Source: Jimgerdemannia flammicorona (lineage: Eukaryota). From it: a stretch of 34,067 nucleotides of DNA. The stretch spans positions 1-34,067 of the forward strand of contig RBNJ01000286.1 in assembly GCA_003990765.1 (NCBI GenBank). The letters are read 5' to 3'. The translations under genes and the position numbers were made by a program. This document shows, one piece after another, positions 1-28,932 of this stretch (its first letter is position 1; every line of letters starts with the position of its first letter). The notes beneath the pieces are model-generated. The model saw only the letters and a program-made list of their open reading frames with translations, made no database searches and was not told the DNA's origin.

Positions 1-161
1 AAGAGATAACAAGATAGTTAAAGATAAGAAGTTTGAGGACTATAAGACCTTGGGAAGACACTCCAATAAGAACTTGCTTATAACAAACTTGAGTTAGTCT
101 AAGAGATATATCTTGAAGAGAATCTGGCATATTTGAAGGACTCAGTGACCACTTCGTAACA
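1..161 (+). repeat. 3' part (U5) of the 5' LTR of family A copy 1
   Basis: Near-identical to 7237-7395; ends ...CGTAACA. Confidence 0.93.
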
Positions 162-164
162 ACT

Positions 165-182
165 TGGTACCCATTGGCTGGT
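165..182 (+). promoter_or_regulatory. Primer-binding site (tRNA not identified)
   Basis: TGGTACCCATTGGCTGGT begins 3 nt after the LTR-terminal CA; TGG is complementary to tRNA CCA. Confidence 0.7.
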
Positions 183-287
183 GATTTAAGATGAATCCCT
201 CACTTTTAAGCTGAAAAATGAATAACCCCCACAACAACTACCCTGACTACAAGAGTCACCCCTGCAAGAATTCAAGATAAGATAGAA

Positions 288-3200
288 ATGTGTCCCCTCA
301 CATTCTATGGATATACTACTGAAGAGTCAATCCTGACCTTCATTGAAGACTTTGAACAATTCACTGCCATACAAGCCCTTGATGTGGATGCTCAATTGGC
401 CCTTCTACCAGTCAGCCTCAGAGGACCTGCCAGAGACAAGTTTAATGTAGCCACCATTGCTGGTGCTGATGCAGTCAAACTTACCAATATGAAGACCTTC
501 CTCAGAACAACATATTATACCAAAGAAATCAAGCAAGCTCTCAAGGATCAACTCAATACTATCTGCCAGGGACTTAGTGAAGATCCCAACTCATTCTATA
601 CCCGAATCTGTCACCAGATTGTCTTGGCTGGCTATGATGATGCCCTCAAGAAACAAATAGTGGATTCAACCTTCCTCAAAGGAGTTTACCCTGAAATTGC
701 CCTAGCAATCTGGTCTACTCCAGCTGCACTGACCCTTGATCAGAAAGTGGTCTTTGCACAGAGATATTGGACTGCCAGACACTCTGCCAAACACTCAATG
801 GAGAAAATAACTGGCATCAAGATGGAGCCATCAAAGCCAACTAGTATCTTATCTGCCACAGTTATAAACAGATAACCAACCCCACCTACCCCCAAGATAG
901 CCAAAGCTGACCCAGTGGAAGAACTTGCCAAGCAGTTTGCCAAGATGACTGCACACCTCGGTGATGTTGTTAGAGAAGTCCAAAGTGCCAACAAGAGACC
1001 AGTGCAGATATTTGTAGCTACTACAGAAGAACGCAATATCACATGCTTCAGATGTAGAGAAGAAGGCCACTATGCAAAGAGTTGTATGACCGAAATGAGA
1101 TGCAAAGCCCAACCAAGCAATGCTAGCAGAACCAGAGAACAAACAAATACAGTAGTCATTGAGGAGATTGGTGATACTGATGATGAAGAATACTACGAGG
1201 AGCTCAAAATCTACCCTGCTACTGAAGGTACCAGAACCCGGTCCAAGCCCTATGACAAGAAGAGCAACAGCAAGCCAGTTGGAAGACCAAAGAAGACTCT
1301 AGCTGTCACTATTCAAAGCAAGACCTAACCTGAGGAGATTGATCAAGACATGGAGTTAGATGAAGCTATCTGCCAAATTATCGAAGACACTACTCCAGTC
1401 TTAGGAGAAAGCGAGAGCAAGAAGGAACAGAAGCTGCACAAGACTAAGATCCACCAGTATGACATCTACAAGGACCTCAAGGAACAGAAGGTCAATGCCA
1501 CTTTTGGGCAGCTAGCTGAAGTCCCTGCCTTCAGACAGCAGTTGAGAGTAGGACTTGTAACTACTGCCAAGAATCAAGAGTACAAGATCATAGAAGCTCA
1601 CAATGCACAAGAAGAATCTGAGAACTCAGGTAAAGAATCTGAAGACCAGCACAAGACATCAGCCTATACTCCCTGCCAGATCAAAGACTGTATCTTTGAT
1701 GCCATCATTGATACTGGTGCTGGAGGATGCCTCATGAGCAAGAAGGCAATTGACTGCCTAGGTTGGGACATTGAAGAGTCCACCAAGATGGTCTATGTCA
1801 CAGCAGATGGTACATGAGCTACCCTCCTTGGCAAAATCCAAGAAGTCCCCATCAAGATAGGAGGAGCTACCATCCCAGTAGATATGATTGTTACAAGTAC
1901 CACCAACTATGACATCCTCATTAGCAACCAATGGCTTCACAAGGCCAAGGCCATCATTGACCTTAATGCCCAGAAGATGCAGATCAACTACAGAGAAAGA
2001 AAGGTACAAGTTTCTATCAATGTCCACAAAAGAGTCCTGCCAGATATGGAGGAAGGAGATGAAGAAGACACAGAGGTCTTCATGCACTCAGTGAACAAGA
2101 ACAAGAACAAGACACCCAAGCTCACAGATGAGCAGTAGTATAACAAGATCATCGATAGATATGCCCCTCAAGGAAGATGCCCCCATAGTACTAGAATGTA
2201 CTGCTCTGAACATCTGAATGACTGCTGGTCCTGTATCAGCGAAGTCAGGAAAATCCACCAACAGAAATATGAGCAAGAAGCTGCTGAAACAAAAAGGAAA
2301 GCTGAAGAAGATGACCAGCCCCCAGAGCTTCAAGCTGACAGTGACGATGAGGAGGAACAAGAATCAGACATTACTCTCAAGGTCAAGAAGTTTCACCCTG
2401 AAGCTAAGATCCCAGAATACAAGACTGAAGGAGCCATAGGAATGGACCTTACCAGCATCCAAGATGCTACCCTTGAACCACAGACCACCACCCTACTTGG
2501 CACTGGAATTGGAGTCAAGTTGCCAGAAAACCATGCTGGAATTATCAAGACCAGGAGTAGTCTGGCCAAAAGTGAAATCTCAGTTGAAGGAGGAATAATT
2601 GACCCTGATTACACTGGCGAGATTTTTCTCATAGTCAGAAATTACAGCCACACCACCCCCTTCAAAGTCAAGAAGCATGACAGGATTGGCCAGATGCTGA
2701 TCCACGAAATCAAGAAGCCCAAGATCATAGAAGCCACTGAACTTATCAAGACCAAGAGAGGAGAACAAGGCTTTGGATTTACTGGAAGAGGAGCCTATGC
2801 CACTACCAAGATTACTGAACTTGAGCACAAGAAAGACAAAGACCAGAACAAGCACACATATACCATTGGAGAAAACTTTCCCCTGGAGGAACAACTTCTC
2901 AAGATCCTGTACCAGAATGACGAAGTACTTGCTACAGACTTTAGGGATATCCACAATCAAGAACCCAAGTACTATCATGAAGTTGATACTGGTGATACCA
3001 AGCCTATCTACCAGAAAGCCAGACCTATACCACCTGCCTACAGAGAGTGGCTGTGAGCCAAACTCAAGGAAATGAAAGAAGCTGGAATCATCAAGCAAGC
3101 TATCAGCCCCTGGGCCTCACCCATTGTCCTTGTCCCGAAGAAAGGAAGCAAGTCTGGAGAGTTTGCACCAAGACTCTGCATTGACTACAGGAAACTCAAT

Positions 3201-4307
3201 GCCATCACCAAGAAGGATAGGCAGCCCTTGCCGAATATTCAAGAAATCCTTACTACTCTTGGAAGTGAAGCCAAATACTACACCACCTTGGATCTGTTCT
3301 CAGGCTTCCATCAGATCGGTCTCACTCAAGATACTAGTGAGAAATCAGCATTCATCATACCTGATGCCACCTATATCTATCTACAAATGCCATTTGGAAT
3401 GTGCAATGCCCCAGCAAGTTTCCAGTGAATAATGAACAGAGTCTTTAGCAACAAGATTGGAAAATGGCTCTTTGTCTATGTTGATGATGTGATCATCTTC
3501 AGCAACACTGCACAGGAATATGTCAATCACATACAGCTAGCCCTCAAGAGGCTCAAGGAGTATGGCCTCTACATCAAGCCCAAGAAATATAAGTTTGCAG
3601 CTCAAGAAATCGCCTACCTAGGACACCTTATCAACCAGACTGGAATCCATACAGACCCCATGAAGATCGAGGCTGTTGCAGCCTACCCGAGACCCAGAAC
3701 AACTACAGAAGTCCATGCCTTCCTTGGACTGTCCAGCTACTACAGAAGATTCATCAAAGGATACTCCAATATTACAGCACCTATCTACAAGCTACTGAAG
3801 AAGGAGACCAATTTCGAATAGACCAAGGAGTGCCAAGAAACCTTCAATGAACTCAAGACCAGGTTGACCCAAGCACCCATCCTCAGAAGACCAGACTGGA
3901 ACCTAGAATTCATTCTGCAGACAGATGTGAGTGCTATAGGACTTGGAGCAGTCCTAGCTCAGGAGAAAGATAGACATGAATATGTTATCTCCTATATAAG
4001 CTGAGGTGCCTGCAGAGTGGAACAGAACTACAAGTCATGCAAGCTTGAATACTTAACAGTAGTTTGGGCAGTAGATAAGTTCCACTACTACCTAGCCAGA
4101 AAACACTTCACCATTCAAATGGACCATTCCGCTCTTGCCTAGCTATTCCACACTCTGAACCCTAAAGGAATATATGCCAGATGGATCTACAGGCTGCAAG
4201 AGTATGACTGTACTGTCAAGTACTGCTCAGAAAAGACCAACACTAATGCTGATGTACTCTCAAGGACACCCCAAAACACCCCCATCAAGACTACTCAACA
4301 TGAATAA
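288..4307 (+). pseudogene. gag-protease-dUTPase-RT-RNaseH polyprotein, single frame, broken by in-frame stops
   Basis: ORF pieces at 288, 915, 1350, 1884, 2196, 3072 and 3432 share one frame; stops are explained by CGA>TGA, CAA>TAA, TGG>TAG (e.g. FQ*IMN for FQR). Motifs: CFRCREEGHYAKSC (1044-1085), IIDTGAG (D at 1710), SPWASPIVLVPKK, LDLFSGFHQI, MPFGMCNAP, YVDD (3477-3488), LQTDVS..GLGAVL, DHSAL, NADVLSR. Confidence 0.95.
2376..2789 (+). pseudogene. Trimeric dUTPase domain between protease and RT
   Basis: All five dUTPase motifs: GAIGMDL, RSSLA, GGIIDPDYTGEI, DRIGQM, RGEQGFG(F)TG. Confidence 0.95.
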
Positions 4308-5496
4308 GGAGCTATACTATGGATTAATCAGCTACCTTGGGCAGCAGAAGATGCCCAACCACCTCAAACCCTGGATAATCACCATCATCAACTGGACTTA
4401 GAAATAGTTTGAATTAGACAACACTATACTTAGAAAAGGAGGAAAGCTAGTAATACCTGAACACAAGAAGTATCAAGTAATGAAGGAAGTATATGAGCAA
4501 GGACACTTAGGAGGAACCAACATATATGACAAGGCAAGAAGAACCATGTGGTGGCCCAAGATGGAAGAAGACCTACACCAATTTGTCAAAGAGTATGACA
4601 AGTGCCAAAACAGAAACAAGATCAGTAAGACCAGGCACCTGAATCATCAAGAATTGAGCCTATCCCCTTTCACCACATTGTAATAGATATCATTGGATCA
4701 CTACCAGTAACACTATCAGGAAAACTGCTATATTATAGTTATTGTAGACCTCTTTACCAAATGGATAGAGGCAGGAGCATTACAAGAAGCCAATGCCCTC
4801 TCTATAGCCGACTTCCTATACCGAGAAATCATCTGCTGCTACAAGACACCAAAGCAAATCACAACAGACTGTGGTACAGAATTTGTCAATGGATTCCACA
4901 AGATAATGTATCAGAAATACAGGATCCAGCACATCAAGACCACCACATACCACCCTTAAGGAAATGGACAGACAGAGAGAACCAACAAGACCCTCAAGAA
5001 CATTCTAGCAAAGATCTCAGAGACATATGAGAATTGGGATAACTATCTTCCAACTGCCCTCTCTGTTCTATGAGACATATGGTCACAGAGTATACATTTT
5101 ACCCCAAGAGAGCTGCTCTTTGGAGAAGAAGATTCTGATGGAACCTCAGCCACAAATCTAGACCTAACTTGGAGATGGGTTGATGCAGAAATCCGGAAAC
5201 TATACCAAATCAGGAAGAAGGCTGAAGATTACATCACTAAGTTACAAGTGCTGACAAGGAAGAATATGGAAAAGAATCACAAGACCCTAGAACCCATCCG
5301 AATTGGAGAAAAGATTCTACTGTATTAAAATATGGTAGAAGTCTCATGGTCATGAAAACTGGAGCCCAAATGGGAAGGACCCTTCTACATGCAAGATATC
5401 AAGAGAACTATCTTCTGGCTAAGAAAAATCTCAGAGACCATACTGTCTACTATGGTATATAGGAACAGACTCAAGAAGTACCACAAACCTATATAA
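4300..5496 (+). pseudogene. Integrase in its own reading frame (Zn finger, DDE core, GPF motif)
   Basis: ATG at 4300 overlaps the pol stop (ATGAATAA). GHLGG...WWPKM...(C)DKCQ, IDIIG.LP, VDLFTKWIEA, TDCGTEF, TTYHP*GNGQTERTNKTLK, LEPKWEGPF, RNRLKKY. Compensating -1/+1 A-run indels near 4607 and 4722. Confidence 0.92.
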
Positions 5497-5508
5497 GAGA
5501 AGCAAAAT

Positions 5509-5826
5509 ATGATGACCACCTGCAAGGTTCTAGTCCGTGAATCGTAACAGCATGTCCTGTGACCAGAAGGCTATCTGCCTAGACCATTCTCTAAGGGATA
5601 CAGCACTGGCAACTACTCATCCATAAGACTTTTGAAGTCAGAGGAGTTCAAACCATTAACTGATTGGTCAAGATCAGAATCAGGCCCTTACTCTATATGA
5701 AGGGAGTGACCCTTCACCATCATGCCAAAATACAAAGAGAAGACACTAGCCCATAAACATCAGTTTTCAACCCCTTGCTAGAGGTTATGGGATCAGCAAA
5801 TTTTTCAAGACTGGACCAATGAATAA
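5509..5826 (+). pseudogene. Possible small accessory ORF or integrase C-terminal extension, unknown function
   Basis: In frame with integrase; five internal stops, all transition-type; ends at the pre-PPT hairpin; segment also present in copy 2 (~28965-29285). Confidence 0.4.
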
Positions 5827-5860
5827 GGATGCTCAGGAAGATCCTTATTCAGGAGGAAGA
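5820..5860 (+). promoter_or_regulatory. Stem-loop plus polypurine tract of family A
   Basis: TGAATAAGGAT-N10-ATCCTTATTCA perfect 11-bp stem; AGGAGGAAGA immediately before TGTAAT. Confidence 0.8.
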
Positions 5861-6102
5861 TGTAATGGTGATCCCAGAATGATGACATCAGCACTGGAGA
5901 CAGCCTTTCCTTGCAAGCCACCAGATCAGAGCACAAGAAGATCATACAGCATATGAGATGAGCAATAATGACCAACTGTGAGTCATTGTGACCATAGTAC
6001 AAGTATTCTGAAGAATATAAAAGAACAATCAAGGAACCACAGTAGCAGCAACCAATAAGAACCACTAATCCCAAAATAGCTCAAAGACTTACCATAAACA
6101 AA

Positions 6103-6936
6103 ATGCCTGCTGCTCACCAAACCTCAAGGTCAAGGAATCACCAAGGTATCTCAGTTGAGAAAAGGATGTTCCAAGACATCAGAAGAGCCATGAGGACCCA
6201 CTCAAAAAGGACTCCTAGTGTCAACCTGGGTACTGCAGACTCTTATCACTTCATTCTCTACTACCGTGAAATGGAAACAAGAATCACTATTGCCACCAAA
6301 TACCTCCAAATGTGACAGGAGTATGAAATAGGAAACCTCCTCTGCTGGGAGTTCCCACAAGCCAGCACCCAAGAGCTACAAGATACCACTTCTATGGATA
6401 TATGTGAAATAAGGACAGCTAAGAAGATCTATCAGATCTTCAGGCATGCACCATGGTCAATCCCCAACTTAGAGTATGTTAGAGTCTCAGACTTCAGAGA
6501 CCTATCATCCTGCCATATCAACATACTAGAAGCCAGGGTGGCTACAGAAGCCCAGTCCACTATCACTCTCAACAGTGAAGAAGTAGAAGACTTCTGGCAC
6601 TCTATCCTTCAGGACAACCCAGACCAATTTCTGCAAAGATTGATCTCAGTATTCCAAGGCCCAAGCATCCAGGTTAGACCTCCCCAAGACCCCACATTTG
6701 TTCCCTATTTTGTAGAAGAAAACCTCATAGACTGGAGAGCTCCAGATTTTGTTCCCGATTTTCCCACCACAGCCGAATGTGATGACATCATCAACGATGA
6801 CATTATCCCGCACAACATCGACATATGTGAGATATATAATGAAGTATGTGAAAATGATGAATTTGCGGATCTCATCTCCTTCAGTGATGATGATGATGAG
6901 GATAAAGCTCCCATAGTCCTGAACTTTCTGCTCTAA
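6103..6936 (+). pseudogene. LTR(U3)-encoded ~277-aa protein of unknown function with acidic tail; one internal TGA
   Basis: ORFs 6103-6315 and 6394-6936 are in frame and joined across a single TGA (probably CGA); homologous remnant at 27830-28676; motif shared with 14084-14491. Confidence 0.72.
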
Positions 6937-6944
6937 GTTCTGTA

Positions 6945-7075
6945 TTACACTGGATAATGCTAGCACCAGTATTCTCATGTAATACTAGATAATGCCAGCA
7001 CCAGTATTCTGAGGTGATGCGAAATTGTTCCAGTATTGGCATTTTGATGTGACACTAAATAATGCCAGCCCTGGA
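6945..7075 (+). repeat. ~35-bp tandem repeats in LTR U3
   Basis: ACTRGATAATGCYAGCACCAGTATTCT twice at period 35, plus a third partial copy near 7053. Confidence 0.75.
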
Positions 7076-7432
7076 ACTTAGTAGTTTTAGTTATTGGAAT
7101 TTATATTTAGCTTTATATCTTAGCAACCATTGAATTATATTTTGTATAAATACCCCTCTTATTTCTTCTGAAATAAAGTCAGTCAATTCAGTATATTCAG
7201 TCAAGTGTAATATACATACTTCCTTGCAAGCCATCTAAGAGATAACAAGATAGTTAAAGATAAGAAGTTTGAGGACTATAAGACCTTGGGAAGGTACTCC
7301 AATAAGAACTTGCTTATAACAACTTGAGTTAGTCTAAGAGATATACTTGAAGAGAATCTGGTATATTTGAAGGACTCAGTGACTACTATGTGACAATATA
7401 TATATATATACTATTTTATATTTTAGTCTTAC

Positions 7433-8244
7433 TATAATTATTCTAGTTTCTTTAAGAGAAAGTAACAAAATCTAAAAAGTTCTAGTAGATCTAAAGAGAT
7501 ACTTATAAATTTAAGTAGTTTTATAGAATTTCTAAAAAAAAATAAGCTAAGCTTTATTTTAAGTAGTACTTCCAAATAAATCAAATTAATTTGAATTAAA
7601 TTAAATTAAGAGTCATTCAAATCAAATTCAAATTGAATTGAGTTCCAATTGAAATATTTATCCCAAATTCAAAATATAATAACTCAATAGAAATATATTT
7701 AAATTTAATATCCTTTATTATACTAGATTCTCTATTATAAGATATATTTAATAAGCTAAAATTCATTAAATTTAGATATATTTTGATTGAGTTATTGAAT
7801 TTTGAAAAATTTGATTTGAATTGAACTTCAAATTGAATTAGATTGAATCAAATTAACCCTTAATTTGTTTTGAATATTTCAAATTAGAAGTAAATTCAAT
7901 TCAATTTATTTCAAGTACTAATTCTAAGTAAAGAAAGAGAATATTTATATAGAATCTGAAAGAAGGATCCAGAAGGATCTTAGAAATAAAAAGAAAAGTC
8001 AAGAAAATAGTTCTCAGCAAAGATGATTAATTGAATTCTACAATGTTCCAAAAGGTTCTATAATTAGTTAAGATAAGATACTTAGTACTAAGAAAAGACA
8101 TGGATGTTCTAATAAAGTCTTAATACCAAGAGAGAATTTCTAAGCATTTGAGAGATACTGGAACATTGTGGAATATTTAAGAAAAGATAACAAAAGACTA
8201 GTGAAAAGATTTAAAAAATATACTATGATTAAGAAATTATTGCA
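7433..8244 (-). mobile_element. Solo LTR related to family C, interrupted by a MITE
   Basis: Similar to LTRs 16566-17029 and 22164-22617; 5-bp TSD CTTAC (7428-7432)/CTCAC (8245-8249). Confidence 0.88.
7564..7920. mobile_element. MITE, hAT-type
   Basis: TIRs TAGTACTT..AAATAAAT / ATTTATTTCAAGTACTA; 8-bp TSD ATTTTAAG/ATTCTAAG; second copy at 12182-12491. Confidence 0.85.
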
Positions 8245-8249
8245 CTCAC

Positions 8250-8414
8250 TCTGGTAGTCTGATAATAAGATCTTCAGACAGATATCATCTTTGAGCTCAC
8301 CTGTGACTGATTCTGAGGAGTTAAGAAGATCAAAAAATTGCTACTAACTCTGGGAGTCAAGAAAAGATAAAGAAATCTGATGTACTTTTCAAGTTATGCA
8401 TCCACTACATTACA
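8250..8414 (+). repeat. 3' fragment of a family B-like LTR
   Basis: AAGATAAAGAAATCTGATGTACTTT...CCACTACATTACA matches the family B LTR end (consensus CCGCTACGTTACA). Confidence 0.75.
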
Positions 8415-9831: not shown

Positions 9832-10059
9832 CTAATTTATTCGAAACACATGAAAATATCGCCAGATTTAGTCCAGATCTACAGAGAGGGCACATGATAC
9901 GATGTGGATGCGCTTGCATTTTTGTGAATGAGACCCATTTTGGCAAGCAAAATAATGAATATCGGAAATTGACAGAGTTCATAATTACCTGCATATCCCT
10001 TTTATTATCAGTCTTACTGGTTGCTGCATCTTTCGAATGAACCAGAACTGTCGATGCTA

Positions 10060-10355
10060 TATTGACAGGCCGCAGTATCTCCGAACCGGTCAACGTAATG
10101 GGGACACTATGTTGACTCTCAGAACATGGGAATACTATGTTGACTGGCCACAGCATCTAGGAGCTGCCAACATCTAGGAGCCGCCAATACCTAGGAACCG
10201 TCAACATCTAGGAGCCGCAAACATCTCGGAACCGTCAACATAATGGGACACTATATTTACCAGCCGCAGCATCTCGGAACCGTCAACGTAATGGGGACCG
10301 GCTGCAGCATCTCGGAGCCATCAACATCTCGGAACCGTCAACGTAATGGAGACAC
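10060..10355. repeat. Compound minisatellite built on a ~17-bp unit
   Basis: Repeated CATCT(A/C)GGA(G/A)CCG(T/C)CAA units interspersed with CGTAATGGGACAC units. Confidence 0.85.
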
Positions 10356-10568: not shown

Positions 10569-10578
10569 TATATAAATA
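10569..10578 (+). promoter_or_regulatory. TATA box of the island gene
   Basis: TATATAAATA starting 37 nt upstream of an ATG in CCACAATGG context. Confidence 0.6.
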
Positions 10579-10605
10579 TTCAAATTTCTCGGTCACATTT
10601 CCACA

Positions 10606-11516
10606 ATGGGCGGTGAAGGTCCTTGGTTCGAATTCCTTTCGCATTTTCGAGTTCGCGGCACCTCAACCACAATTTTAAGCGACGACGTCTACCAACGCGC
10701 AGTCCCTTTCCTCATCAAATGCAAGGACGAGCTCATCTCCGAGCACGGTTTCACGACCACCATTGATACCACCAAGCTCAGTGCCGACGTAAGCTCCCTA
10801 GTTCCACCGGAGGAGTCGCTCCTTGCCATTCAAGGCCGTGTTCTGGAGCCCATGAATATCAAATTTTACCCTTCAGACGACCCCCATCGCTATGTGACTA
10901 TACAACTTCCCAAGTCGCTTTCATCCTTCCAGGCTCACACCGCTACCTGGAATGGCCTATTCACCAGCTTTAGAGCCTGGTTCGAAAAAACGTGGCCGCG
11001 CACCCTGTACGTCAACGAACCTCAGCCTCTCCGGGACATTATCTACACGTTGCAGATCGTGACGGATGGCATGTTGACGTTGAAGCGGATTGATGATTTA
11101 GGCGATTACGAAAAGCTCACCACCCAGAATTTGCCACCTCTGGAATGGATCCGTGACCACAAGGAGTTGGTGTGCAACGTGCTGCAGTGTGAATCGACAG
11201 AAGATTTAGAAGAAGAGGCCGCAAATGTTAAGGTGGGAACATAATGTCTTTTGTTTTTTTTATTCGCCAGATTCAATATTATTATATAATTTACACTCAT
11301 GTTCGTCATTCACGGTCTTAGACCAGCCAGGTGCCAAGACCAAGATATTATTCATGGGATTATCGCGGTGGTCGCGTTGACGAGCATTTTTACGATCGTG
11401 ATGATGAGTATTTTGACAATCGTGATGATTTTTACGATCGTGATGATGAGAGCGATGATAGGAGTTTCACAGCTTGTGGTCGGGATTGTGATTATTGTGG
11501 ACATTGTGACTACTAG
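10606..11516 (+). CDS. Hypothetical host protein, ~273 aa, two exons (10606-11232, 11322-11516)
   Basis: Intact 212-codon ORF with normal CpG content. AAG|GTGGGA donor, AT-rich 89-nt intron with CTCAT branch-like site, and TTAG| acceptor join it in phase 0 to an acidic, Cys-ended exon (alternative in-frame acceptor at 11330). AATAAA at 11624. Confidence 0.8.
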
Positions 11517-13516: not shown

Positions 13517-13992
13517 TATAATGTAGCGGATGCTTACTCTTGAAAGTACATCAGATTTCTGTATCTTGAGAACTTGACTGTTCTGACTCTCGCAGAGTCT
13601 CTTGAAGTGGCAGGGGAGGGTGGGTGAGTTCAAAGTGTGTCTGCCCGCAGGCTTACTAGTTCCTTTGCTATCTCTTTGCTTTTGAAATATTTCGATCTGA
13701 GGTTTATTCACTTGAAGATACTGGGTTATTTATACAAGTTTGCTAGCTATGAGAGAGTGGCTAAGTAATAAATGAGTCATTTGGACTTTGTTGAAACATT
13801 TGGACAATGTCTAAATGCTATACTAAATTGGGATATTCGATTTGGATAATGTCCAAAATTTAGACAATGTCTAAGAAATTAGACAATATCGAAATCGAGG
13901 ACTGCTAACTATAATGCTATACTACTTTGGGAATGGGTGCGATCAAGTGTCTATTCCTATTTCCTTCTTCCAAATCTGGCTGTACTGTCACA
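13517..13992 (-). repeat. 3' LTR of family B (~476 bp)
   Basis: On the minus strand it starts TGTGACA after PPT AGGAGGAAG, contains TATAAATA and AATAAA, and ends CCGCTACATTATA (mutated ...CGTTACA). Confidence 0.85.
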
Positions 13993-14083
13993 ACTTCCTC
14001 CTGAATGGATGGTCTCATCCCTGAGACATCTATTCAAACTCCCAGGCTTCAACGGTCTGTATGGTCTTATACTGTGCAATTTG

Positions 14084-14491
14084 CTACATGACTGTCTCCC
14101 AATGATGTCTTCTCACTTTCTCGAAGTTGGTAGGGGTTACTCCTCTCAGGTGGTCTATCGCTGCTTCATCTTCTTGGAATAACTTGTGGATCCTTTTGGC
14201 AATAGTGATCTGTGAGTGGGATAGTTGACACTCGGTAATCCAGTCCTCCTTGGTCTTTGCTGGATCCTGATTGAGCATCTGTCCAAGCTTGAAGTACTCT
14301 TGGAATTCTGCTCGATATTGATAGGCTCTAAAGTGCGAGATCCAAGAGAGATGAGTCTGCACAATACTCTGAATATCCTCATAGAATAGCTCTATAGTCG
14401 GAGGCTCGGTAGTGTGCCATTGTCTTTCGATGGCTCTTTGGGCAGCACTAGTGATCTTGAGTGCCATCGCAGTACTTTTGTTACTGGCCAT
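14084..14491 (-). CDS. Family B accessory ORF downstream of integrase (135 aa; ancestrally probably ~20 aa longer), unknown function
   Basis: Open frame whose ATG overlaps the integrase stop (ATGGCCAGTAA); motif similarity to the family A LTR ORF. Confidence 0.72.
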   Translation of the reverse strand: MASNKSTAMALKITSAAQRAIERQWHTTEPPTIELFYEDIQSIVQTHLSWISHFRAYQYRAEFQEYFKLGQMLNQDPAKTKEDWITECQLSHSQITIAKRIHKLFQEDEAAIDHLRGVTPTNFEKVRRHHWETVM

Positions 14492-15674
14492 GGTATTTCT
14501 TGAGTTGGTTTCGGTGAATGGTGGTGGGGATTATTGTGTCTGAGGGTTTTTGTAGCCAAAAGGTGGTTCCTTTTATATCTTGTACAAGGTAAGGTCCTTC
14601 CCACTTGGGCTCCAGTTTTTGTGACCATGAAGCTTCTACTATGTTCCGATATACCAGGACTTTGTCTTCTATCTTGATAATCTCTAAGGATTTGTGGGTC
14701 TTTTCCACATTCCTCCATTGTAGTGTCTGCGCCTTCGTTATGTAATCCTCAGCCTTCTTCCTGATTTGGTGTAGTCTCTGTATTTCTATGTCCATATGTT
14801 TCCATACAGCATCTCCATTGGATGATAAGGTTCCCTGAGAACATTCTTCTCCGAACAGCATTTCTCGAGGGGTAAAGTGGGTACTTTGTGATCGGATATC
14901 CCGGAGAACAGATAATGCTATTGGTAGATAGTGATCCCAGTTCTCGTAGCTATCACAGATCTTGGTGATAACATTCTTGAGGGTCTTGTTGGTCCTTTCT
15001 ACTTGTCCATTTCCTTGAGGGTGATAGGCTGTAGTCTGAATGTGCTGGATCTTATACTTCTTGTAGAGAACTTCGAAGAACTGGTTCACGAATTCAGTTC
15101 CTCTATCTGTAGTTACTTGTGTTGGGGTCTTGAACCGGTAGATGATTTTCTTGTGGAAGAAATCAGCAATTGACTGTGCATTGGCTTCCATAAGGGGTCC
15201 CGCTTCTATCTACTTCGTAAAAAGGTCTACGATGACAATGATGTATCGGTTGCCAGTTAAAGTCAAGGGTAGGGGGCCAATTACATCTATTGCAATATGG
15301 GTGAATGGTACTGGTTCTATGTGTGCTGATCCTGGGGCTTGATTTCGTTGGTCTTATTTCTGTTTCTGGCATTTGTCACAGGTCTTGATGAATTGTCTGA
15401 TATCTTCCTCCATCCCTGGCCACCATATTGTTCTTCTTGCCTTGTCATATATATTTGTTCCTCCTAGATGGCCAAGTTTATATACTGATTTCATTGCTTG
15501 CTCCTTCTTATGTTCTGGTATAACTAGTAGTTTTCCTTTCTTCAGTGTTTCTCCGTCAGTTTTGAATTGTTTCCATGTTCTGTTGATAATCGTTTATGTC
15601 CATTCTTCCAGATGTTGGGGCATCTTTCGCTGTCCCAGGTATGTGATGATTCCATAGTAGAGCTCTTTATTCAT
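14481..15674 (-). pseudogene. Family B integrase, separate ORF (398 codons, a few stops)
   Basis: MNKELYYGIITYLG start; GHLGG, CDKCQ, TDRGTEF, TAYHPQGNGQVERTNKTLK, LEPKWEGPY. Confidence 0.93.
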
Positions 15675-16004
15675 GATTGATTTGTTGGTTGGAGGTAGTT
15701 CGAGGTGTCCATGAGAGAGCATCTGCATTGGAATTTGTTCTTCCAGGGTGGTGTACAATGGTTATGTCATAGGCTTGTAACTTCATTATCCATCTGGCAT
15801 AGATTCCCTTGGGTTGTCCAGTTGTCAGTAGCCAGGTGAGAGCTGAGTGGTCCGTCTGGATGGTGAAGTGTCTTCTGGCCAGATAGTAGTGGAACTTTTC
15901 CACAGCCCAGATGACTGCAAGGTATTCCAACTTGTAGGACTCATATTCTTTTTCAGCCCCTTGGGTTCCGTGGCTAAGATATACAATGATATACTCTTTT
16001 TTGT
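15667..16004 (-). pseudogene. Family B RNase H C-terminal part
   Basis: LEYLAVIWAVEKF, TDHSAL, ARWIMKLQ, NADALS; ends ...NHE*. Confidence 0.92.
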
Positions 16005-16565
16005 CTTACTTTACTCAGGCTTACTGTAACTTATTTCATTTCAGCCTCACTCCTTACTCATGCTTACCCCTCTAGAGTCTGTAGATGTTTTTTAATTTTA
16101 ATTTAGATTTGTTTTGTTTATATTTATTTGTAATTTTTATTCTGCAACTGGGATTGATTCTCTCTTTATCTCTGCTTATGTATCTCTAGCAGTCATATGA
16201 TTCCTAATTCAGATATCTCTATATTGTGACATATCTTCCCTTTTGGGATATTGTATTTTATATATAAGGACTATACTTTTATATAGCAATAAATGGTTGA
16301 TGCATTTTTAGTTATGTTCTTTATTTGTCTCCCTTATATATACCTTTTTATATGTATGTCTTCTATCTACTTTGATCATGGCTCTGAGTTTATTTCCCTG
16401 ACTTCTGCTAGGCCTTCTTTCTCTACTGCTATTCTGCCTGTTCTTGAGACTTCTGTCTCTGCTGATGAAGTCATGGACAAGATTTTTTCTCTTTCTTCTC
16501 TCTCTGTTATTGTCCCTGCCACTGTCTTATTTAAGACTTATATCTTGTCTACTGTTCTCTATCTT

Positions 16566-17029
16566 TATAATGGTTCTAGTTTCTTTAAGAGGAAGTAGCT
16601 AAATCTGGAAGTTCTGATTGACTTAAAGTAGCTCAAAGAGATACTTAAAGGTTCAAGTATTCTTGAAGGATTTCTGAAAGAAAATATTCTGAGCTTTATT
16701 TAGGCAGAGAATAAGGATATTTATACAGGATCTGAAAAAAAGATCTGGAAGGATCTTGAAAAGAAAGAGAAATACCAAGAAATAGATTCTCAATAAAGTT
16801 GACTAATACTATTCTACAATGTTCCAAAAGGTTCCATAACTAGCTAAGACAAGATGCTTAGTACTAAGGAAAGACAAGAATGTTCTGGTGGTGTCTGGGC
16901 ACCAAAAGAAGGTTTCTAAGCAAGTAGAAGGTGATGGAATATAGTAGAATATTCAAGAAATAACAAGAAAAGACTAACTAAAAGATACAAAAATATATCA
17001 AGACTAAATATGACTGTGAAATTGTTATA
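16566..17029 (-). repeat. 3' LTR of family C
   Basis: Direct repeat of 22164-22617; adjacent to the PPT. Confidence 0.92.
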
Positions 17030-17329
17030 TCTCTCTCTCCTTAAGAACCAATGTCCTCATTGAGTTCTTAGATAATATAAGACTAGATATACTTAACTAA
17101 AATTTCTCAAACTTGAATTAGTATATTGGTGGGGATTAACCATTCTTATATAGAGTAGAGGGCCTATTATCAGACTAACTAACTGGGAGGGGTTCAAACC
17201 TAGCTAGTAGCTTCATTTCAGTAGACTTCTTGTTTATTAAATATTCTACTAGTTCTGGGGTTCCAAAGTAAACTTCTAATGCATAAGGTACTGGTCATTG
17301 CCATAGGTCATTGACAATCCAAGAAAGTT

Positions 17330-20300
17330 ACTATAGGGATTGGACAATGTATTTTGCCTTGAAGTCTTGAACTAGATCTTGAGAGTTCTTAAGATTGACC
17401 AGTGGTTTTCAGGTAGTATCATATTCAAGATAACCCATCCACTTGACTAGATATTCAGGACAGCAGTAGCAGATTCATTTGTTAAAGATTTTCTCAGCTT
17501 TATACTCAATATAGTCTTTGATAATCACAGGGGCAGAAGGCTTAGGAATTCAACCAGGGTAGGGTAGTGACTGGTTCCAGGTCTTGAAGTGTGATACATA
17601 AAAGACTGGGTATACTCTTATAGTTTCAGATAGCTTGAGATGATAGGAGAATACAGAGACTTATTCAGTAATCTCAAAAGGTCCAATATACTTGGGTTGG
17701 AATTTGTTCAAAGAGTAGTTGACTTGAGATTATATCTTGAGGTTCTCAGTAGACAGTAGGACTTAATCTCTAATAGTATAAGTGATATCATGGCATTTCT
17801 TGTCAGCATACTTGACTTGATGCTGTTGAGCCTTCTGAAGATTTACAGTAGCAATCTTGAGTAGTTTATCCATTTTGTCTGTAAGGTTCTTGGTAGTTGG
17901 AACTTGTATTTAACTGATTTTCTTGAAAAAGAATAGACTTGCAGAGGTCTCAGGATCTTGACCATAGAGTATCTGGAAAGGGGAAAGACCAGTAGATGAT
18001 TAGACAGCATTGTTGTATACAAACTCTACATAAGTCAGATAGATGTTTCAATTATCTTGCTTATAAGAAATATAGTTTCTAAGTATCTGTTCTAGAGTTT
18101 TGTTCATATACTCAGTTTGTCCATCAGTTTGTGGGTGAAAGGCAGTAGATATAGTCAATTGGGTTTCCAAAGTCTTGAAGAGGGTTTGCCAGAAGTAACT
18201 GGTGAACTTGGGATCATAATCACTGATAATTACTTATAGTAGACTATAGTAACAGAAGATGGACTTGAAGAAGATTCTTACAATCTCAGATATAGTAGTA
18301 TTGGTAGTAATTGGTTTAACAACCATAGTCTTGATCAGGCAGTTAACAAATATGACAATAGTATCAGCATCAGATTGAGTTCATGGTAGTTGAGTTACAA
18401 AGTCCATGGTGACTTGCTCAAACTTCTTTAGGAATTGGTAGTAATTATAGCAAACTGGCAGGGGCTTGGTTGGTAGACATGTTGTACTGACATAGATCAT
18501 AGCTAGCAACATAGTTTTTGATTTCCTTGACCATGTTTGGCCAATAGTAGTGGTGTTGGATGTTCTTAACAGTCTTCTCAATTCCTAGATAACTGGTGAG
18601 AGGAGAGTTATGGTGTTCTTGCAAAACCTTGTAGTATAGGTTCATGTTTTCAGGTAGATAAACTTGATCTTGATGATAGATCAGATTGTTCTCAACAATA
18701 TATGTATCCTTGAGTTTATTCAAGAAAACTCTAGTAGTAACTATGTCTTCTTTGTAAGCTTGTCTGATTTGATCTACAAATTCTAATACCAAGGTAACTT
18801 CTATGATTGTGGTGAGATCTGGGTATCTTGATAGAATATCTGGTACTATAAGTGTCTTGCCAGACTTATAGATGATTGTTGAGTTGAAGGTTTGAAGCTT
18901 GAGGCTCTACTTGGCTTATAGATATGTATGATAGAGTAGGTTGGGTATTGATAAACTTGAGGGATTGATGATCAGTAATGACATCAAACTCAATATCTTC
19001 TAGATAGCATTGCCAGTAGTTCCTTCTTGTGAGTAGCTAGCTTTTGTTCAGCTGGGGCCAGCTTGTGGGACTTGAAAGTAATAGAGTGATGTCCTTTGCT
19101 ATCATCTTGTAATAGGACTGCTCCAATGGTAAAATTCAATACATCAGTAGTAACTGTGAATTTTAGGCCTTGATCTATATTATACAGAACTGGAGCATGG
19201 GTCAGACAGTTCTTGAGTTCTTGAAAGACTTATTGATAGAAGAGATCTCAGGTGTAGGGTATATAGTGGTCTGAGTGCAGGGCCTTCCTCATGAGGTTAG
19301 TCAGTAGCTCAGTAATGTCAGAGAAGTTTCTGATAAAGTGGTAGTAATAGTCAGCTAGACCAAGAAAAGATCAGAGTTCTGTGAGGTTTGATGGAATGGG
19401 CAATTCTTCAATTGCTTCTATCTTATATGGGTCTACTTGAATTTCTTGTGCAGAGACAATGTGGCCAAAGTATTTGACTTATTCCTTGAAGAATTTACAC
19501 TTCTTGAGTTTGGCATAAAACTTGTGTTTTCACAGAATCTCCAGGACTATTCAAATGTATTTGAGGTATTCTTCTTTAGTTATACTAAAGATCAGGATGT
19601 CATCAAGATATACCAACAGAAAAATAAATAGTTAATCCTTGAATATCTTATTCATCAGAGTCTGGAATGTGGTGGGTACATTGGTGAGACCAAATACTAA
19701 GACCAGGAATTCATAGAGTCTAAAAGGGATCATGAATGCAGTCTTGGGAATGTCTTCTGGTTTGATTTGAATCTGGTGGTATCCTGACATGAGGTCTAAC
19801 TTAGTGAAGTACTTGGTATTTTTGAGAGCATCAAAGATTTGATCAATCAAGGGTAGTGAATAGTGGTTCTTGACAGTGAGTTGGTTGAGTATACATATTC
19901 ACAGGGTACTATCCTTCTTCTTAATGAATAAGACTGGTGAGCCATAAGGAGATTTGCTTGACTGGAGCTCCTCATACAAATAGTTCTTCTAGTTCCTTCT
20001 TAACTGCTTCAATTTCAAGTAGTGACATACAGTATATGTGTTTCTTAAGTGGTACAGCTCCTGGGATCAGTTCAATTTCATGATCAACTTCTTGTGCAGA
20101 TGGTAGATTAGATAGCTTATCTGGAAAGACATCCTTGAACTCTTCTAGCAGTAGCTTGATGCTTTCATTGACTAATAGTCTCTTGTCTTATTTCTTAGAG
20201 TGGATCATTACAACAAAGGCATGTATTGTCTTCTTGAGTGCTTTCTTATACTATATAGCTGATAGTGTTGCAATCTGGGTCTTGCTCATAGTCTTGTCTG

Positions 20301-22090
20301 TCTTGATCATAATGTTAACTCTATCTTGAAGTAGGGTGACTTCATTCTTACATCAATCAATATCTGAGTTGTGCTTCATAAGTCAGAGCTTTCCTAAGAT
20401 CAGGTCATAATCTCTTAGTGGTGCAATCTTAAAGTCTACTCATTCCCAATATTTCTGGATCTTAATGGACAGTTTGGTGGCAATTGACTTGATGGGGTGC
20501 AGAGTACCATCTGCAGTAACTATACTATTGTTCTTGGGTGCAGGCTAGGTGAGGATCTTGAGGCTTTCAATGAGATTCTGATTGATGAAGTTTTCTGTAG
20601 CTCTGCTGTCTATAAGTACTTGAACTTCTTTTCCTTTGACTAGGCCTTTGAAAATGAGCATAGCTTGAGCTCAATTTTTACTAAGACTTGCTGCTTAATC
20701 AGTACTACTAAAACCCTTTTGATCTTATTTAGTTTCAGAGTTCTTGGACTTCTATAATCTTAAGTTGACTGGCTTTTTCCAGGATCATTTGCACAACTCA
20801 GTCTCCTTCTTTAACTGTGTAGTCTTGATCCTTCTGGTTGACAAGCAAGACTTAAACTTGTCCTCAAAAGTCTGGGTCAATAACATCAGTACCTACATCC
20901 AAATGATATTTGATACTGAGTCCTGATCATGGTGCAATTCTAGCATAATACATATCCTTCAGGGCATTGAACTGCAATTCCAGTAGGTACCAGAGTACAG
21001 TACTTGGCTGAAATAGTGACTTGTTTGACTGAGTGTAGGTCAAGATCAATGGCTCCTTCTGTTTGATATTGAGAGAACTGGGCCTTCAGATGAAGCTTCT
21101 TGACCTTGAGCTCAAGTTGACTGGTAGTGAGATTGATAGATGTATCCTTAGATAACATGGTGACTGGTCTTGAGAGTTCACTAGTCTTTTTAGGGTATTT
21201 GGTTGCAATGTGTCCTGTTTGGTGACAGAACAAATAGGCTCTAGATTTCTTCAAGTGGTCCTTTTCTTCAGGAGTGAGCTTGGTGTTCTTTTTATTCATA
21301 GTATCTAAGTCCATTGATGCCAGGCCAACTGTCCTTGGTTGGTTTCTGTGGTAGTTCTCAAAATGGTTCTTCTTGTGGTGTTCTGGTTCAAAGCAGTTGC
21401 CAAAGATGATAACATCAAATCTATTAGTGATTATCATAGCTTCATTAAGAGATTTGGACTCTTCTAGCTCAATCTTGACTTGTGTATTTTCCTTCAGATC
21501 TCAGATATAGTGATCTATCTTTTCATCCTCAGATACTGCTGGTAGCTCAAGTAGGATTGATAAGAATTGTACATTATAGCTTTATATAGACTTGAGTTGT
21601 TTGATGTTCACTAGTTTGTCCCTGGCTAGCTTGGTGGCATTAACAGGCTTAAACTGCTTGTGAAGGGCTCTCTTAAAAGCTTCCCAATATAAGTATATAG
21701 ATGTAACCATAATATGATTGCATCACCAGATGGCTGTATTTCCTTGGAGAAGTGTGGTGGCAAATTGGACTTACATATCATCTTCTATTCTTGTGAGTTC
21801 GAAGTATTGGTCCAATTGGAAGGTCTATATATCTGTAGATAGTCCTCCTCAATGGTCATCAAAGATGTCTAGCTTGAGTGGCTTGAAACTGACTGGTGCT
21901 ACAGCAGGATGTAATATTCCTGTAGTTTGTGTTTTCTAGTATTCTAGTTGTTCTTGAAGTTCTTGAATTTGATGGGCTATGGCATTGATCATATCTTCTA
22001 TATTGAGCTGTGATTCTCCTGCTTCTTCTATAACAGAGGGGTCTGACTAGTAGACTGACTCTTTGTGGCTTATTTCAGATTCATTTGACT
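17330..22090 (-). pseudogene. Family C gag-pol (boundaries approximate)
   Basis: MDLD; (C)LFCHQTGHIATK(C) ~21194-21236; LIDS(G)ATENFI (D at 20608-20610); KLDLMSGYHQI; YLDD 19599-19610; FHPQTDGQTE; KYIGPF; chromodomain EYKAEKI...EYLVKWMGY...NLKNS ~17375-17515. Confidence 0.9.
20700..21112 (-). pseudogene. dUTPase domain between Gag zinc knuckle and protease
   Basis: LKVKKLH...TEGAIDLDL...LVPTGIAV..PEGY, then frameshifted remnants of DPDF, DRVVQMI and GFSST. Confidence 0.85.
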
Positions 22091-22147
22091 AGTTGTAACT
22101 GGTTTCTGAATTTGTGTGAGGTTTCTTAATAAGGCAAGGTATAATAA

Positions 22148-22161
22148 CACTGTTGCTACCA
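22148..22161 (-). promoter_or_regulatory. PBS of family C, likely initiator tRNA-Met
   Basis: TGGTAGCAACAGTG 2 nt after the 5' LTR; TGGTAGC matches fungal/animal tRNAiMet 3' ends. Confidence 0.75.
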
Positions 22162-22163
22162 AG

Positions 22164-22617
22164 TGTAACAGTTCTAGTTTCTTTAAGAGGAAGCAGCTAA
22201 ATCTGGAAGTTCTGGTTGGTCTAAAGTAACTTAAAGAGATACTTAAAGGTTCAAGTATTCTTGAAGAATTTCTGGGAGAAAATATTCTGAGCTTTATTCA
22301 GGCAGAGAACAAGAATATTTATACAGGACCTAAAAGAAAGATCCAGAAGGATCTTGAAAAGAAAGAGAAATGCCAAGAAATAGATTCTCAGCAAAGCTGA
22401 CTAATACTATTTTACAATGTTCCATAATTAGCTAAGACAAGATACTTGGTGCCAAGGAAAGACAAGAATGTTCTGGTGATATCTGGGTGCTGAGAGAAGG
22501 TTTCTAATCAAGTAGAAGGTGACAGAACATAGTAGAATATTCAAGAAATGACAAGAAAAGACTAACTAAAAGATGCAAAAATATACTAAGACTAAATATA
22601 ACTGTGAAATTATTACA
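22164..22617 (-). repeat. 5' LTR of family C
   Basis: TGTAAC...TTACA termini; direct repeat of 16566-17029. Confidence 0.92.
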
Positions 22618-27332: not shown

Positions 27333-28932
27333 TATCACATAGTGAGCACTAAGTTCTCCAAGTATATCAGATTCTCTTCAAGGTATATCTCTTAGACCAA
27401 CTACAAGTTTCTTATAAGCAAGTTCTATTGGAGTGCCTTTCCAAGATCTTATAGTCCTCAAACTTCTTATCTTTAAACTATTCTGTTGTCTCTTGGATTT
27501 GCTTACTTGAAATTGAGAAGAGGACTGGAACTTCTATACTTCTGAGTAGTTGGGTGCTTGAATGCTTAAGTGTTTGAATACTGACTTTATTTCAAAAAAA
27601 AAAATGAGAGGAGTATTTATACAAAATATAATTCAATAGTTGCTAACTTATAAAACTAAATATAGATCCTAATAATTAAATAAAATATTTAAATACAGAA
27701 AACTTCAGGTTGTAAGTATAAATTCAAATATCTATATAATTAGTTATATAAGATCAGAATGCTAGAATAATTTCTAATAATTATATAAGATCAGAATGCT
27801 AGAATAATTTTAATAGTTATACAAATAACTTAGAGCAAAATATTCAGAACTCTGGAGACTTTGTCTTTATCACTATTATTAAGACCAAAGGTCAGAATAT
27901 CTTCAAAAGAGATGAGGTTAGCAAATATTTCTATAAGCATCTTGTCCATTTCACATATTTTGCATATTTTGTATATATTGATTAGTGGAATAATATCATT
28001 GCCAATGACATTATTATATTTGGTAATGATAGAAGAAGTAAAGAGATCAAAGGCTCTCTAATCTATGATATTTTTCTCTACAAAGTAGAGAATAAAGATG
28101 GGATCTTAAGGGAATTAAATCTGAATACTAGGGTCTTGAAATATTAAGATTAATCCTTATAGAAATTGATCTGGACTATTCTTGAGGATGAGATTCCAGA
28201 ACTCTTCTACCTTATCACTTTTGAGAGTGATGGTGGATTGGACTTCTGTAGCCACCATAGTCTCTAGTATATCTATATGGTAGGCTGATAATTTCTTAAA
28301 GTCTGAGACTCTGGTATACTCTAAGTTGGATATATCTGAAGATCTGATAGATCTTTTTGACTACTCTCAATTCATGTACATCTATAGAGGTAGCATCTTG
28401 TATTTCTTGGAGACTGGTCTGAGGGAATTTCTGATAAAGGAGATTTCTTATTTTATATTCCTACCACATCCAGAGATATTCAGTAGCAGTAGTGATCCTT
28501 GTCTCCATTTTACAGCAGTAGAGAATAAAGTGATAAGGGTCATTAATACTCAGGTTAAGGTTAGAAATCCTTTTGGTGTAGGTCCTCATAGCTCTCCTGA
28601 TATCTTGGAATATTCTCTCTTAGACTGAGAATCCTTGGTAACTCCTGGACCTTGAGATTTGGTAAGTGGCAGATATTTGTTTATAGTGAGTCTTTTGAAC
28701 TATTTTAGGATTTTGTAAGTCTTGTTTAAGTTGCTATTGCTGTGGTTTCTTGGTCCTTCTTATATTCCTTAAGATGTCTATCTTGTGGTCATTATGACTT
28801 ATAGTTGTCATCATTGCTCATCTTGTAGCCTGGGTGAGTTATACTATATAATCTTCTCATACTCGAATCTGATAGCTTATAAGGAAAGACTGTCTCTTGT
28901 AATGATGTCACTATTCTAAGATCTCCATTACA
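27333..28932 (-). repeat. 3' LTR of family A copy 2 (~1600 bp)
   Basis: Same PPT-TGTAAT junction and U5 end as copy 1; different 37-bp tandem repeat at ~27744-27820. Confidence 0.78.

Follow-up and report, generated by a model that had tools for sequence, protein, structure and literature searches.

An accessory gene under purifying selection, probably contained in the U3 region of a long LTR, in a decayed Ty3/Gypsy element of Jimgerdemannia flammicorona

Genes located inside the U3 region of the long terminal repeat (LTR), or reaching into it, are known in complex retroviruses, as sag of mouse mammary tumour virus (MMTV), bel/bet of foamy viruses, and nef of human immunodeficiency virus (HIV). 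The Sag product of MMTV is a membrane protein. Tas of foamy viruses is a DNA-binding activator, features an acidic C-terminal activation region, and has an internal promoter of its own. Here we describe ORFx, an open reading frame (ORF) very likely lying entirely within U3 of a Ty3/Gypsy LTR retrotransposon, called family A, a dead copy of which resides in a stretch of 34,067 nt of Jimgerdemannia flammicorona (contig RBNJ01000286.1, assembly GCA_003990765.1). The whole stretch is referred to as the window, and positions are counted from its first letter.

With MMTV sag ORFx would share the layout of a complete gene within U3, hence present in both LTRs and located upstream of the main promoter in the 5′ copy. 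MMTV differs in being a vertebrate retrovirus with env, whereas family A has no env, and ORFx no hydrophobic segment. The foamy tas/bel1 and bet genes, and HIV nef, are likewise 3′ accessory genes reaching into U3, and the layout of Tas is the one proposed below for the ORFx product. In contrast to ORFx, which would be wholly inside U3, these genes only overlap it; no sequence or fold match links them to ORFx. No sequence likeness of ORFx to the MMTV superantigen or foamy Bel/Tas families was detected by Pfam.

Additional comparisons are offered by Ty3/Gypsy elements of other organisms. According to the excerpts of the sources taken into account, elements of plants and bdelloid rotifers carry, downstream of pol and before the 3′ LTR, lineage-specific extra ORFs ('ORF3') whose function is either unknown or captured (PMC6431247, PMC5408684), and a dUTPase is found between protease (PR) and reverse transcriptase (RT) in rotifer and basidiomycete elements (PMC5408684). 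ORF-B, found in a sister family of the window (family B), fits the ORF3 pattern, as described in these excerpts, exactly; ORFs of this kind are located before the 3′ LTR, whereas the family A gene is placed past the polypurine tract (PPT), probably in the LTR. In crapaud, a fungal Gypsy element of Podospora, subfamilies have exchanged the 5′ half of their LTRs, which corresponds to U3 upstream of the TATA box (PMC10787394). Crapaud is similar to family A in that U3 readily takes up new sequence, but its variable U3 measures <200 bp, and the excerpt of the source mentions no ORF in it. In the literature, the coverage of which is incomplete for subscription journals and is no proof of absence, we found no Gypsy element outside the retroviruses whose U3 contains an entire gene. 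What would be new is a known layout, the gene in U3, in a class of elements where it has not been described, along with a protein family without named relatives.

Several decayed Ty3/Gypsy elements are nested in the window. Its first 7395 nt are a dead copy (copy 1) of a dUTPase-bearing Ty3/Gypsy LTR retrotransposon, which lies on the plus strand, begins before position 1 and ends at 7395. The order of the domains is gag-PR-dUTPase-RT-RNase H-integrase. Matches to the Pfam families zf-CCHC, RVP_2/Asp_protease, dUTPase, RVT_1, Integrase_H2C2 and rve are aligned in this order along the 876–4959 interval, as in Ty3/Gypsy gag-pol regions; a Pfam match to RNase H was obtained in the family B element only, not in copy 1. 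The gag-pol region is interrupted by at least six in-frame stops and at least one frame change. Six stops fall in the pol frame spanning 222–3821 (about 1,200 codons, hence approximately one stop per 200 codons), and the frame changes thereafter. The end of pol, at about 5495 (...KKYHKPI*), was recognised by its likeness to the pol end of family B. The chromodomain found at the integrase C-terminus of chromoviruses was not detected, the pol tail piece 5074–5328 matching no Pfam family.

The 3′ end of the LTR is set at 7395, because nucleotides 1–162 match nucleotides 7237–7396 (94.4% identity), and the former are followed by a TGG-starting stretch resembling a primer binding site (PBS). The two LTRs end alike, ...GTAACA at 161 and ...GTGACA at 7395. 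As the start of the 5′ LTR is outside the window, direct terminal repeats may be compared only at the LTR 3′ ends (1–161 and 7237–7395).

The start of the 3′ LTR is very likely at 5861, which would place ORFx wholly inside a 1,535-bp LTR. We favour this start because the junction between PPT and TGT is shared with family B, two contigs from one sequencing run lose likeness to the window at 5861 and 5868, summed contig depth rises at this point, and purine tracts are missing further downstream. A reading of the window made from the letters alone (hereafter, the sequence-only reading) had seen at 5860/5861 the only PPT-like junction of the region. The junction, AGGAGGAAGA followed by TGTAAT, is present, but is not the only one, since a second purine run before TGT (GAGAAAAGGA followed by TGTTCC, 6157–6166) is located within ORFx, and has no other support. 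The wider context ATTCAGGAGGAAG followed by TGT recurs at the putative PPT/LTR junction of family B (tract 14002–13993, LTR from 13992, minus strand) and in a second copy of family A (copy 2). No purine runs of at least 8 nt precede the later TGT candidates at 6941 (TGTATTAC), 6978 (TGTAATAC) and 7048 (TGTGACAC). ORFx begins 242 nt after 5861, in agreement with the approximately 240 nt estimated earlier, and the LTR TATA box (TATAAATA), as also stated then, is downstream of the ORF, at 7145–7152. The same box is found again in L001, a contig from a metagenome (see below), as well as in copy 2 and in the LTRs of family B (LTR-B) and of a third element of the window, element C (LTR-C).

Support from outside the window is provided by Logan contigs, of metagenomes as well as coded organisms, in the sequencing runs X1, X2, X4 and X6. 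In X6, likeness to the window is lost going upstream at 5861 in one contig, at 5868 in another (among the 24 listed out of 255 loose ends). Each contig continues with 255 unlike letters; these differ between the two contigs, and end in AT-rich, non-purine sequence. Such unlike flanks resemble the sequence found outside 5′ or solo LTRs. Position 5861 is bridged by other contigs, as expected for a 3′ LTR junction. Summed contig depth, a sum over contigs of perhaps several organisms which gives no copy number and cannot rank parts of the gene, rises in the bin including 5861 (5819–5909) in all four runs. Means for the nine bins spanning 5000–5818 and the nine bins spanning 5910–6728 are 439 versus 1329 in X1, 69 versus 195 in X2, 27 versus 69 in X4, and 0.7 versus 1233 in X6. 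The depth of ORFx relative to pol, approximately 3-fold in X1, X2 and X4 and >1000-fold in X6, provides soft support; the excess of LTR over pol in X6 fits many solo or 5′ LTRs carrying ORFx, depth being no measure of copy number. Junction context, loss of likeness in the X6 contigs and depth rise together leave the location wholly inside U3, proposed in the sequence-only reading, the most likely one.

The unusual length of the LTR would be explained by the presence in U3 of a complete accessory gene. ORFx would sit between the first 242 nt of the LTR and the TATA box of the genomic RNA. It would be carried by the genomic RNA in the 3′ LTR, and be located upstream of the main start site in the 5′ LTR; both LTRs would receive it through reverse transcription, and it would persist in solo LTRs. 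The joint reading, in which the long LTR of a dead Gypsy element holds a complete constrained accessory gene with the history and the role proposed below, is given an even chance.

ORFx includes 277 codons and a stop, and is interrupted by an in-frame stop at 6313–6315. At base 6315, summed contig depth over the four runs amounts to 1407 units, 1395 of which carry another letter, and aligned ORFx homologues have a sense codon at this position; because of this, the stop is, on sequence comparison, private to copy 1. The sequence-only reading correctly counted one internal stop. This is not a sign of special preservation, because the decay rate of the element, as measured in pol, predicts approximately 1.4 stops in ORFx.

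Six ORFx homologues, 47–84% identical in the alignment A1, were identified by a word-indexed search among 5.8 billion clusters, and include an intact full-length protein of 271 aa. An exhaustive profile search of 1.84 billion representatives retrieved five ORFx proteins, all of 342 aa at most, and no relatives outside this narrow family. Intact homologues measure 271–342 aa, and full-length members all begin at a common Met-Pro. Long fused forms (600–2000 aa) were not found, which is weak evidence, and the length-free search of representatives likewise stopped at 342 aa. An intact ORFx of 323 codons, approximately 63–71% alike in DNA, resides in L001, where the locus is cut before both LTR ends. 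This is the only additional locus obtained by scanning metagenomes, and none came from the scans of viral contigs and genome contigs. In the window, there are no ORFx copies beyond 6103–6936 and 28676–27833. One X6 contig features a 111-nt, in-frame length difference in ORFx.

The ratio of nonsynonymous to synonymous substitutions (dN/dS) between ORFx and its L001 homologue is 0.21 (Nei-Gojobori method NG86, protein-guided alignment of 276 codons; differences at the three codon positions 95/68/131). In nucleotide alignments, the ratio in the ORFx frame is 0.20 (copy 2) and 0.26 (L001), versus 0.68–1.52 in the two other frames; values of 0.42–0.73 were obtained for the adjacent non-coding region 5496–6102. 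Since dS is near saturation the values are rough, but the contrast among frames is plain, and coding constraint among copies, on which the sequence-only reading depended, is thus borne out. Judging from these alignments, purifying selection acts on ORFx, a genuine family of proteins restricted to a narrow set of relatives of the element.

A probable ORFx homologue, missed in the sequence-only reading, is not enclosed in an LTR but precedes it; it belongs to the nearby family B element, the integrase of which is approximately 70% alike to that of family A. ORF-B has nine homologues (63–79% identity, the longest 153 aa), and in the window stops 18 codons earlier than in its longest relatives (P0012, P0018). 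Comparison of the ORFx (A2) and ORF-B (A3) profiles by hhalign gave a probability of 88% (E 3.2e-6, 115 columns), versus 0.1% for each of the controls, the ORFx profile against gag and against an unrelated ORF. By BLASTP, the most distant ORFx member, P0011, matches ORF-B with E 8e-5. Common motifs are a (W/F)(Q/H)EY...L stretch and AK(K/R)IH(Q/K)(I/L)F...(H/N)L..V. Homology of the N-terminal half of ORFx to ORF-B is therefore regarded as likely. ORF-B lacks the acidic tail, and ORFx carries approximately 140 more residues, tail included. Derivation of ORFx from gag was also considered, and rejected (hhalign, 0.1%).

If ORF-B is homologous, the gene would therefore be an old accessory gene of the lineage, and not a recent novelty of U3. 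The lineage probably had an old 3′ accessory gene, which is internal in family B, and is found past the PPT/TG junction in family A. The position of the gene relative to the PPT/LTR edge would have changed in family A, either by re-creation of PPT and LTR-end words at a site before the gene, or by insertion of the gene behind them. Three short repeat units located downstream of ORFx start with TGTnnnAC, and in these starts an earlier LTR start may have left its traces, although a corresponding remnant of a purine tract is missing there. No ORF-B remnant was detected in the family A spacer (5496–5860) by three-frame translation or by tblastn with ORF-B.

Residues 1–45 of the ORFx protein have an isoelectric point of 12, and the tail (residues 213–277), as anticipated in the sequence-only reading, is very acidic, with 20 D/E residues out of 65 and one K/R, and is hydrophobic as well. 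No membrane segment is present, the highest Kyte-Doolittle mean over 19 residues ranging from 0.32 to 0.74 in three ORFx members. ORFx was also considered as a retroviral or errantiviral Env, and rejected, as no hydrophobic 19-mer exceeds 0.74. AlphaFold predicts a helical body and a disordered tail, the predicted local distance difference test score (pLDDT) being 25–33 in the latter. In the ORF-B model, obtained from a joint alignment, residues 60–125 (pLDDT about 78–82) form a small helical domain. In the VIA-align comparison with the full library this domain accounts for 23 of the 50 listed rows, and 13 of these 23 are DNA-binding domains, most of the helix-turn-helix (HTH) type, including sigma domain 4, KorB, ParB, VirB, SopB, Mor, DeoR and CENP-B (Z 3.5–4.3; root mean square deviation 2.6–5.4 Å; 48–72 residues aligned), values which are in the chance range for helical models. 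Composition and helical core loosely fit a transcription regulator or transactivator; for the anti-silencing factor, the other role put forward in the sequence-only reading, the results speak neither way. Tentatively, ORFx may encode a nuclear regulator of element transcription, in which the basic N-terminus would be followed by a helical core binding DNA, possibly in HTH-like manner, and by an acidic tail of the activation type; such a regulator may act on the short repeats found between the ORFx stop codon and the LTR TATA box.

Several results count against this role. All structural neighbours have Z values of 5.0 or less, which is the chance range for helical models. Identification of the fold by AlphaFold and Foldseek, suggested in the sequence-only reading, gave no result: the overall pLDDT of the ORFx model is 48, and neither ORFx nor ORF-B models matched any pdb entry at E ≤0.001. 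No Pfam family matches ORFx at E ≤0.01, or passes the curated cut-off; at E ≤1, the 12 members compared gave just two entries, ATG5_HBR (E 0.02, which does not reach its cut-off) and NpmA (E 0.026, in one member). ORFx has no match at E ≤10 among PDB sequences, and no usable one in the ESM Atlas, where the best score is 0.83, and the model of that entry has a pLDDT of 0.35.

About as likely as the DNA-binding regulator, and equally tentative, is an ORFx protein which resides in the LTR but works as an adaptor, the tail motifs binding a host protein. Blunting of silencing, direction of particles or integration, and chaperoning of nucleic acid through the basic N-terminus are possible roles. An adaptor is consistent with the predicted disorder of the tail, which varies in length but keeps small motifs (recurring DLISF, LNFLL-type ends), and with HTH likeness being within the chance range; moreover, ORF-B has no tail, so that the shared core may act without it. 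An adaptor has no family or structure match of any kind in its favour either.

The location of ORFx within the LTR may be questioned on several grounds. It is not directly readable, because the 5′ LTRs of copies 1 and 2 are outside the window, except for the last 161 nt of the former, and no LTR pair with ORFx in both members has been seen. The loose ends at 5861 and 5868 are found in one contig each, and the depth data are contig sums giving no copy number. The LTRs of sister elements are short (family B, 476 bp; element C, 454/464 bp), and an LTR of similar size in family A would begin at 6941 (TGTATTAC), 4 nt past the ORFx stop. The probable homologue, ORF-B, has an internal position. As for family B, the start of its LTR is likewise deduced from PPT and TGT; a second full LTR-B copy is absent, and only 3′ parts of LTR-B relatives are found in the window.

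The short sister LTRs, the internal ORF-B and a 5′ LTR visible for 161 nt only would suit an ORFx which is an ordinary internal 3′ ORF, of the ORF3 type, between pol and a short LTR (about 350–455 bp) starting at 6941, 6978 or 7048, while at 5861 a repeat unit of another kind would begin, for instance one of non-autonomous derivatives sharing ORFx and the LTR. The two additional TGTnnnAC units which follow TGTATTAC are also in line with this arrangement, which we nevertheless hold unlikely. None of the three candidate starts is preceded by a purine tract, in contrast to 5861, which follows a 10-nt tract in a context common to family B and copy 2. Two X6 contigs lose likeness at 5861 and 5868, with two different flanks which are not purine-rich, whereas the loose ends within the short repeats, at 7012, 7041, 7061 and 7069, resemble in three cases out of four variant repeat units rather than foreign flanks (the ends being taken, again, from the 24 listed of 255). 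Furthermore, depth on ORFx is approximately 3-fold to >1000-fold that on pol, and 5′ truncation is uncommon in LTR elements. An ORFx devoid of any role for the element, having arisen as a frame by chance or decay or as a host gene fragment captured recently, could be argued from the stop in copy 1, the death of the element and the wrecked ORF of copy 2, but is extremely improbable, being contradicted by a constraint found in the ORFx frame only, intact homologues with a common start, the lack of relatives outside the narrow family among the 1.84 billion representatives, and the probable homologue at the same end of the sister element.

If U3 includes ORFx, as we favour, signals surrounding the gene deserve attention. 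The TATA-like sequence GAATATAAAAG, found 80–90 nt before the ORFx ATG, is a candidate promoter. In the distant L001 it recurs letter for letter, the ATG following after approximately 60 nt, whereas copy 2 has a degenerate version; the ATG context AAGACTCACTAnAAACAAA is also conserved between the window and L001. ORFx may possibly be transcribed from this promoter (6013–6023), using the AATAAA signal of the LTR, in which case each LTR would be a self-contained gene; the lead is a single 11-mer conserved in two sequences. It is conceivable, but doubtful, that every LTR, combining a TATA box for ORFx, the ORF itself and the polyadenylation signal of the LTR, is a self-contained unit, and that the genome has been seeded with many dispersed expression units of a trans-acting DNA-binding regulator. 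Such a regulator would act on the U3 regions of the family, and possibly on host genes. The gene would have entered U3 when the PPT/LTR edge changed place, and families A and B would represent the 'after' and 'before' states, side by side in the window.

Between the ORFx stop and the TATA box, imperfect repeats of about 37 nt are candidate U3 enhancer repeats. Units start at 6941, 6978 and 7048, each with the LTR-start-like TGTnnnAC; the mean column identity is 80% in an alignment made by hand (A4), and the units are absent from the Tandem Repeats Finder output. In one X1 contig, 40 extra letters of similar sequence are found at a joint in the repeats. In the corresponding region of L001 (1040–1345), which extends from the end of ORFx to the TGTATAAATACCCC box, a conserved one, short repeats of a different type are found (CTAGTTAGT-type), and copy 2 has its own pair. 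Because copy 1, L001 and copy 2 each hold different repeats, the stretch between ORFx and TATA turns over between subfamilies.

Retention of CpG dinucleotides at 6755–6870, noticed in the sequence-only reading, is substantiated by counts, as this patch of 116 nt holds 6 CpG, whereas the remainder of the element would predict 0.49 (Poisson p 1.3e-5). The observed/expected CpG ratio is 1.32 in the patch versus 0.11 for the element. In the rest of copy 1, ratios of 0.11 for CpG, 1.41 for TpG and 1.17 for CpA are as expected from methylated-CpG decay. The patch lies 280–390 nt before the LTR TATA box, and overlaps the part of ORFx most variable between copies. Cover is thin on 6729–6910 in all four runs (few contigs with likeness of at least 80%), which we ascribe to variability of the tail rather than to its absence. 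In X2, the loose end of another copy at 6750 (one of the 24 listed of 255) is CpG-rich too.

Coordinates of the features discussed are listed in Table 1.

Table 1. Features of the window relevant to ORFx and to the elements around it
Feature	Positions	Strand	Remarks
U5 end of the 5′ LTR of copy 1, last 161 nt	1..161	+	match to the 3′ LTR end
PBS-like stretch, starts TGG, 3 nt past the LTR end	165..177	+	direct reading
Decayed gag-pol, copy 1	222..5495	+	Pfam matches; many stops and frame changes
Spacer from pol stop to PPT, 355 nt	5496..5850	+	no ORF in three-frame translation
Polypurine tract AGGAGGAAGA	5851..5860	+	directly before TGTAAT at 5861
3′ LTR of copy 1, 1,535 bp, TGTAAT...GTGACA	5861..7395	+	start predicted, end observed
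TATA-like GAATATAAAAG	6013..6023	+	80–90 nt before the ORFx ATG; candidate own promoter
ORFx, 277 codons + stop	6103..6936	+	in-frame stop 6313–6315; begins 242 nt after 5861
CpG-retaining patch	6755..6870	+	part of ORFx coding for the variable acidic tail
Imperfect ~37-nt repeats, units from 6941, 6978, 7048	6941..7084	+	candidate U3 enhancer repeats between ORFx stop and TATA box
LTR core promoter: TATAAATA 7145–7152, AATAAA 7172–7177	7145..7177	+	both downstream of ORFx
Family B Gypsy fragment	13517–16005	-	RNase H and integrase (Pfam), ORF-B, PPT, LTR
Family B PPT and LTR (476 bp)	14002–13993 (PPT); 13992–13517 (LTR)	-	start predicted from PPT and TGT
ORF-B, 135 codons	14084..14491	-	begins within the last pol codons, ends before the putative PPT
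Element C, full-length Gypsy	16566–22617	-	both LTRs in the window
3′ LTR of copy 2, family A	27333..28932	-	~76% alike, heavily AT-mutated; same PPT/TGTAAT junction
Decayed ORFx of copy 2	28676–27833	-	

Other elements mark the remainder of the window. Copy 2 runs on the minus strand from the window end down to 27333, is much more decayed than copy 1, and has its 5′ LTR outside the window. Its base composition (CpG 0.01, TpA 1.08, far lower GC) is more reminiscent of repeat-induced point mutation than the methyl-CpG decay pattern of copy 1. The LTRs of element C (5′, 22617–22164; 3′, 17029–16566; 454/464 bp) are approximately 90% alike according to the repeat finder. The element includes an integrase zinc domain (18445–18906), a dUTPase-like stretch near 20940–21500 and, by eye only, a chromodomain-like pol end near 17330–17520; no extra ORF precedes the LTR. 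The PBS-like word of element C, TTGGTAGC, is close to that of family A, TTGGTACC. LTR-C-like fragments, 66–83% alike to the element C LTRs, are found at 7427–8251, 31 nt past the end of copy 1, and at 26185–26650, about 680 nt from the end of copy 2; because they flank both copies, family A elements lie in, or beside, older LTR-C debris. Tandem units of 17 nt (CAACATCTAGGAGCCGC-like) are found at 10057–10349, where the repeat finder gives 8 copies of a 45-nt register. They reside within the only GC-rich (0.50) kilobase of the window, and adjoin an open frame of 222 codons (10576–11244) without Pfam match.

LTRs of non-retroviral LTR retrotransposons are treated as non-coding control regions, extra genes being placed between pol and LTR (PMC6431247, PMC5408684). 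A constrained gene in U3 would be present in two copies per insertion, and would outlive the LTR-LTR recombination which deletes all the rest of the element. It would also break the assumption of neutral LTRs on which the dating of insertions from LTR divergence is based, and 'solo LTRs' of 1.5 kb may be annotated as orphan genes. Families A and B provide a natural comparison for the movement of the PPT/LTR edge relative to a gene. If ORFx regulates transcription, it would be the retrotransposon counterpart of the transactivators of complex retroviruses.

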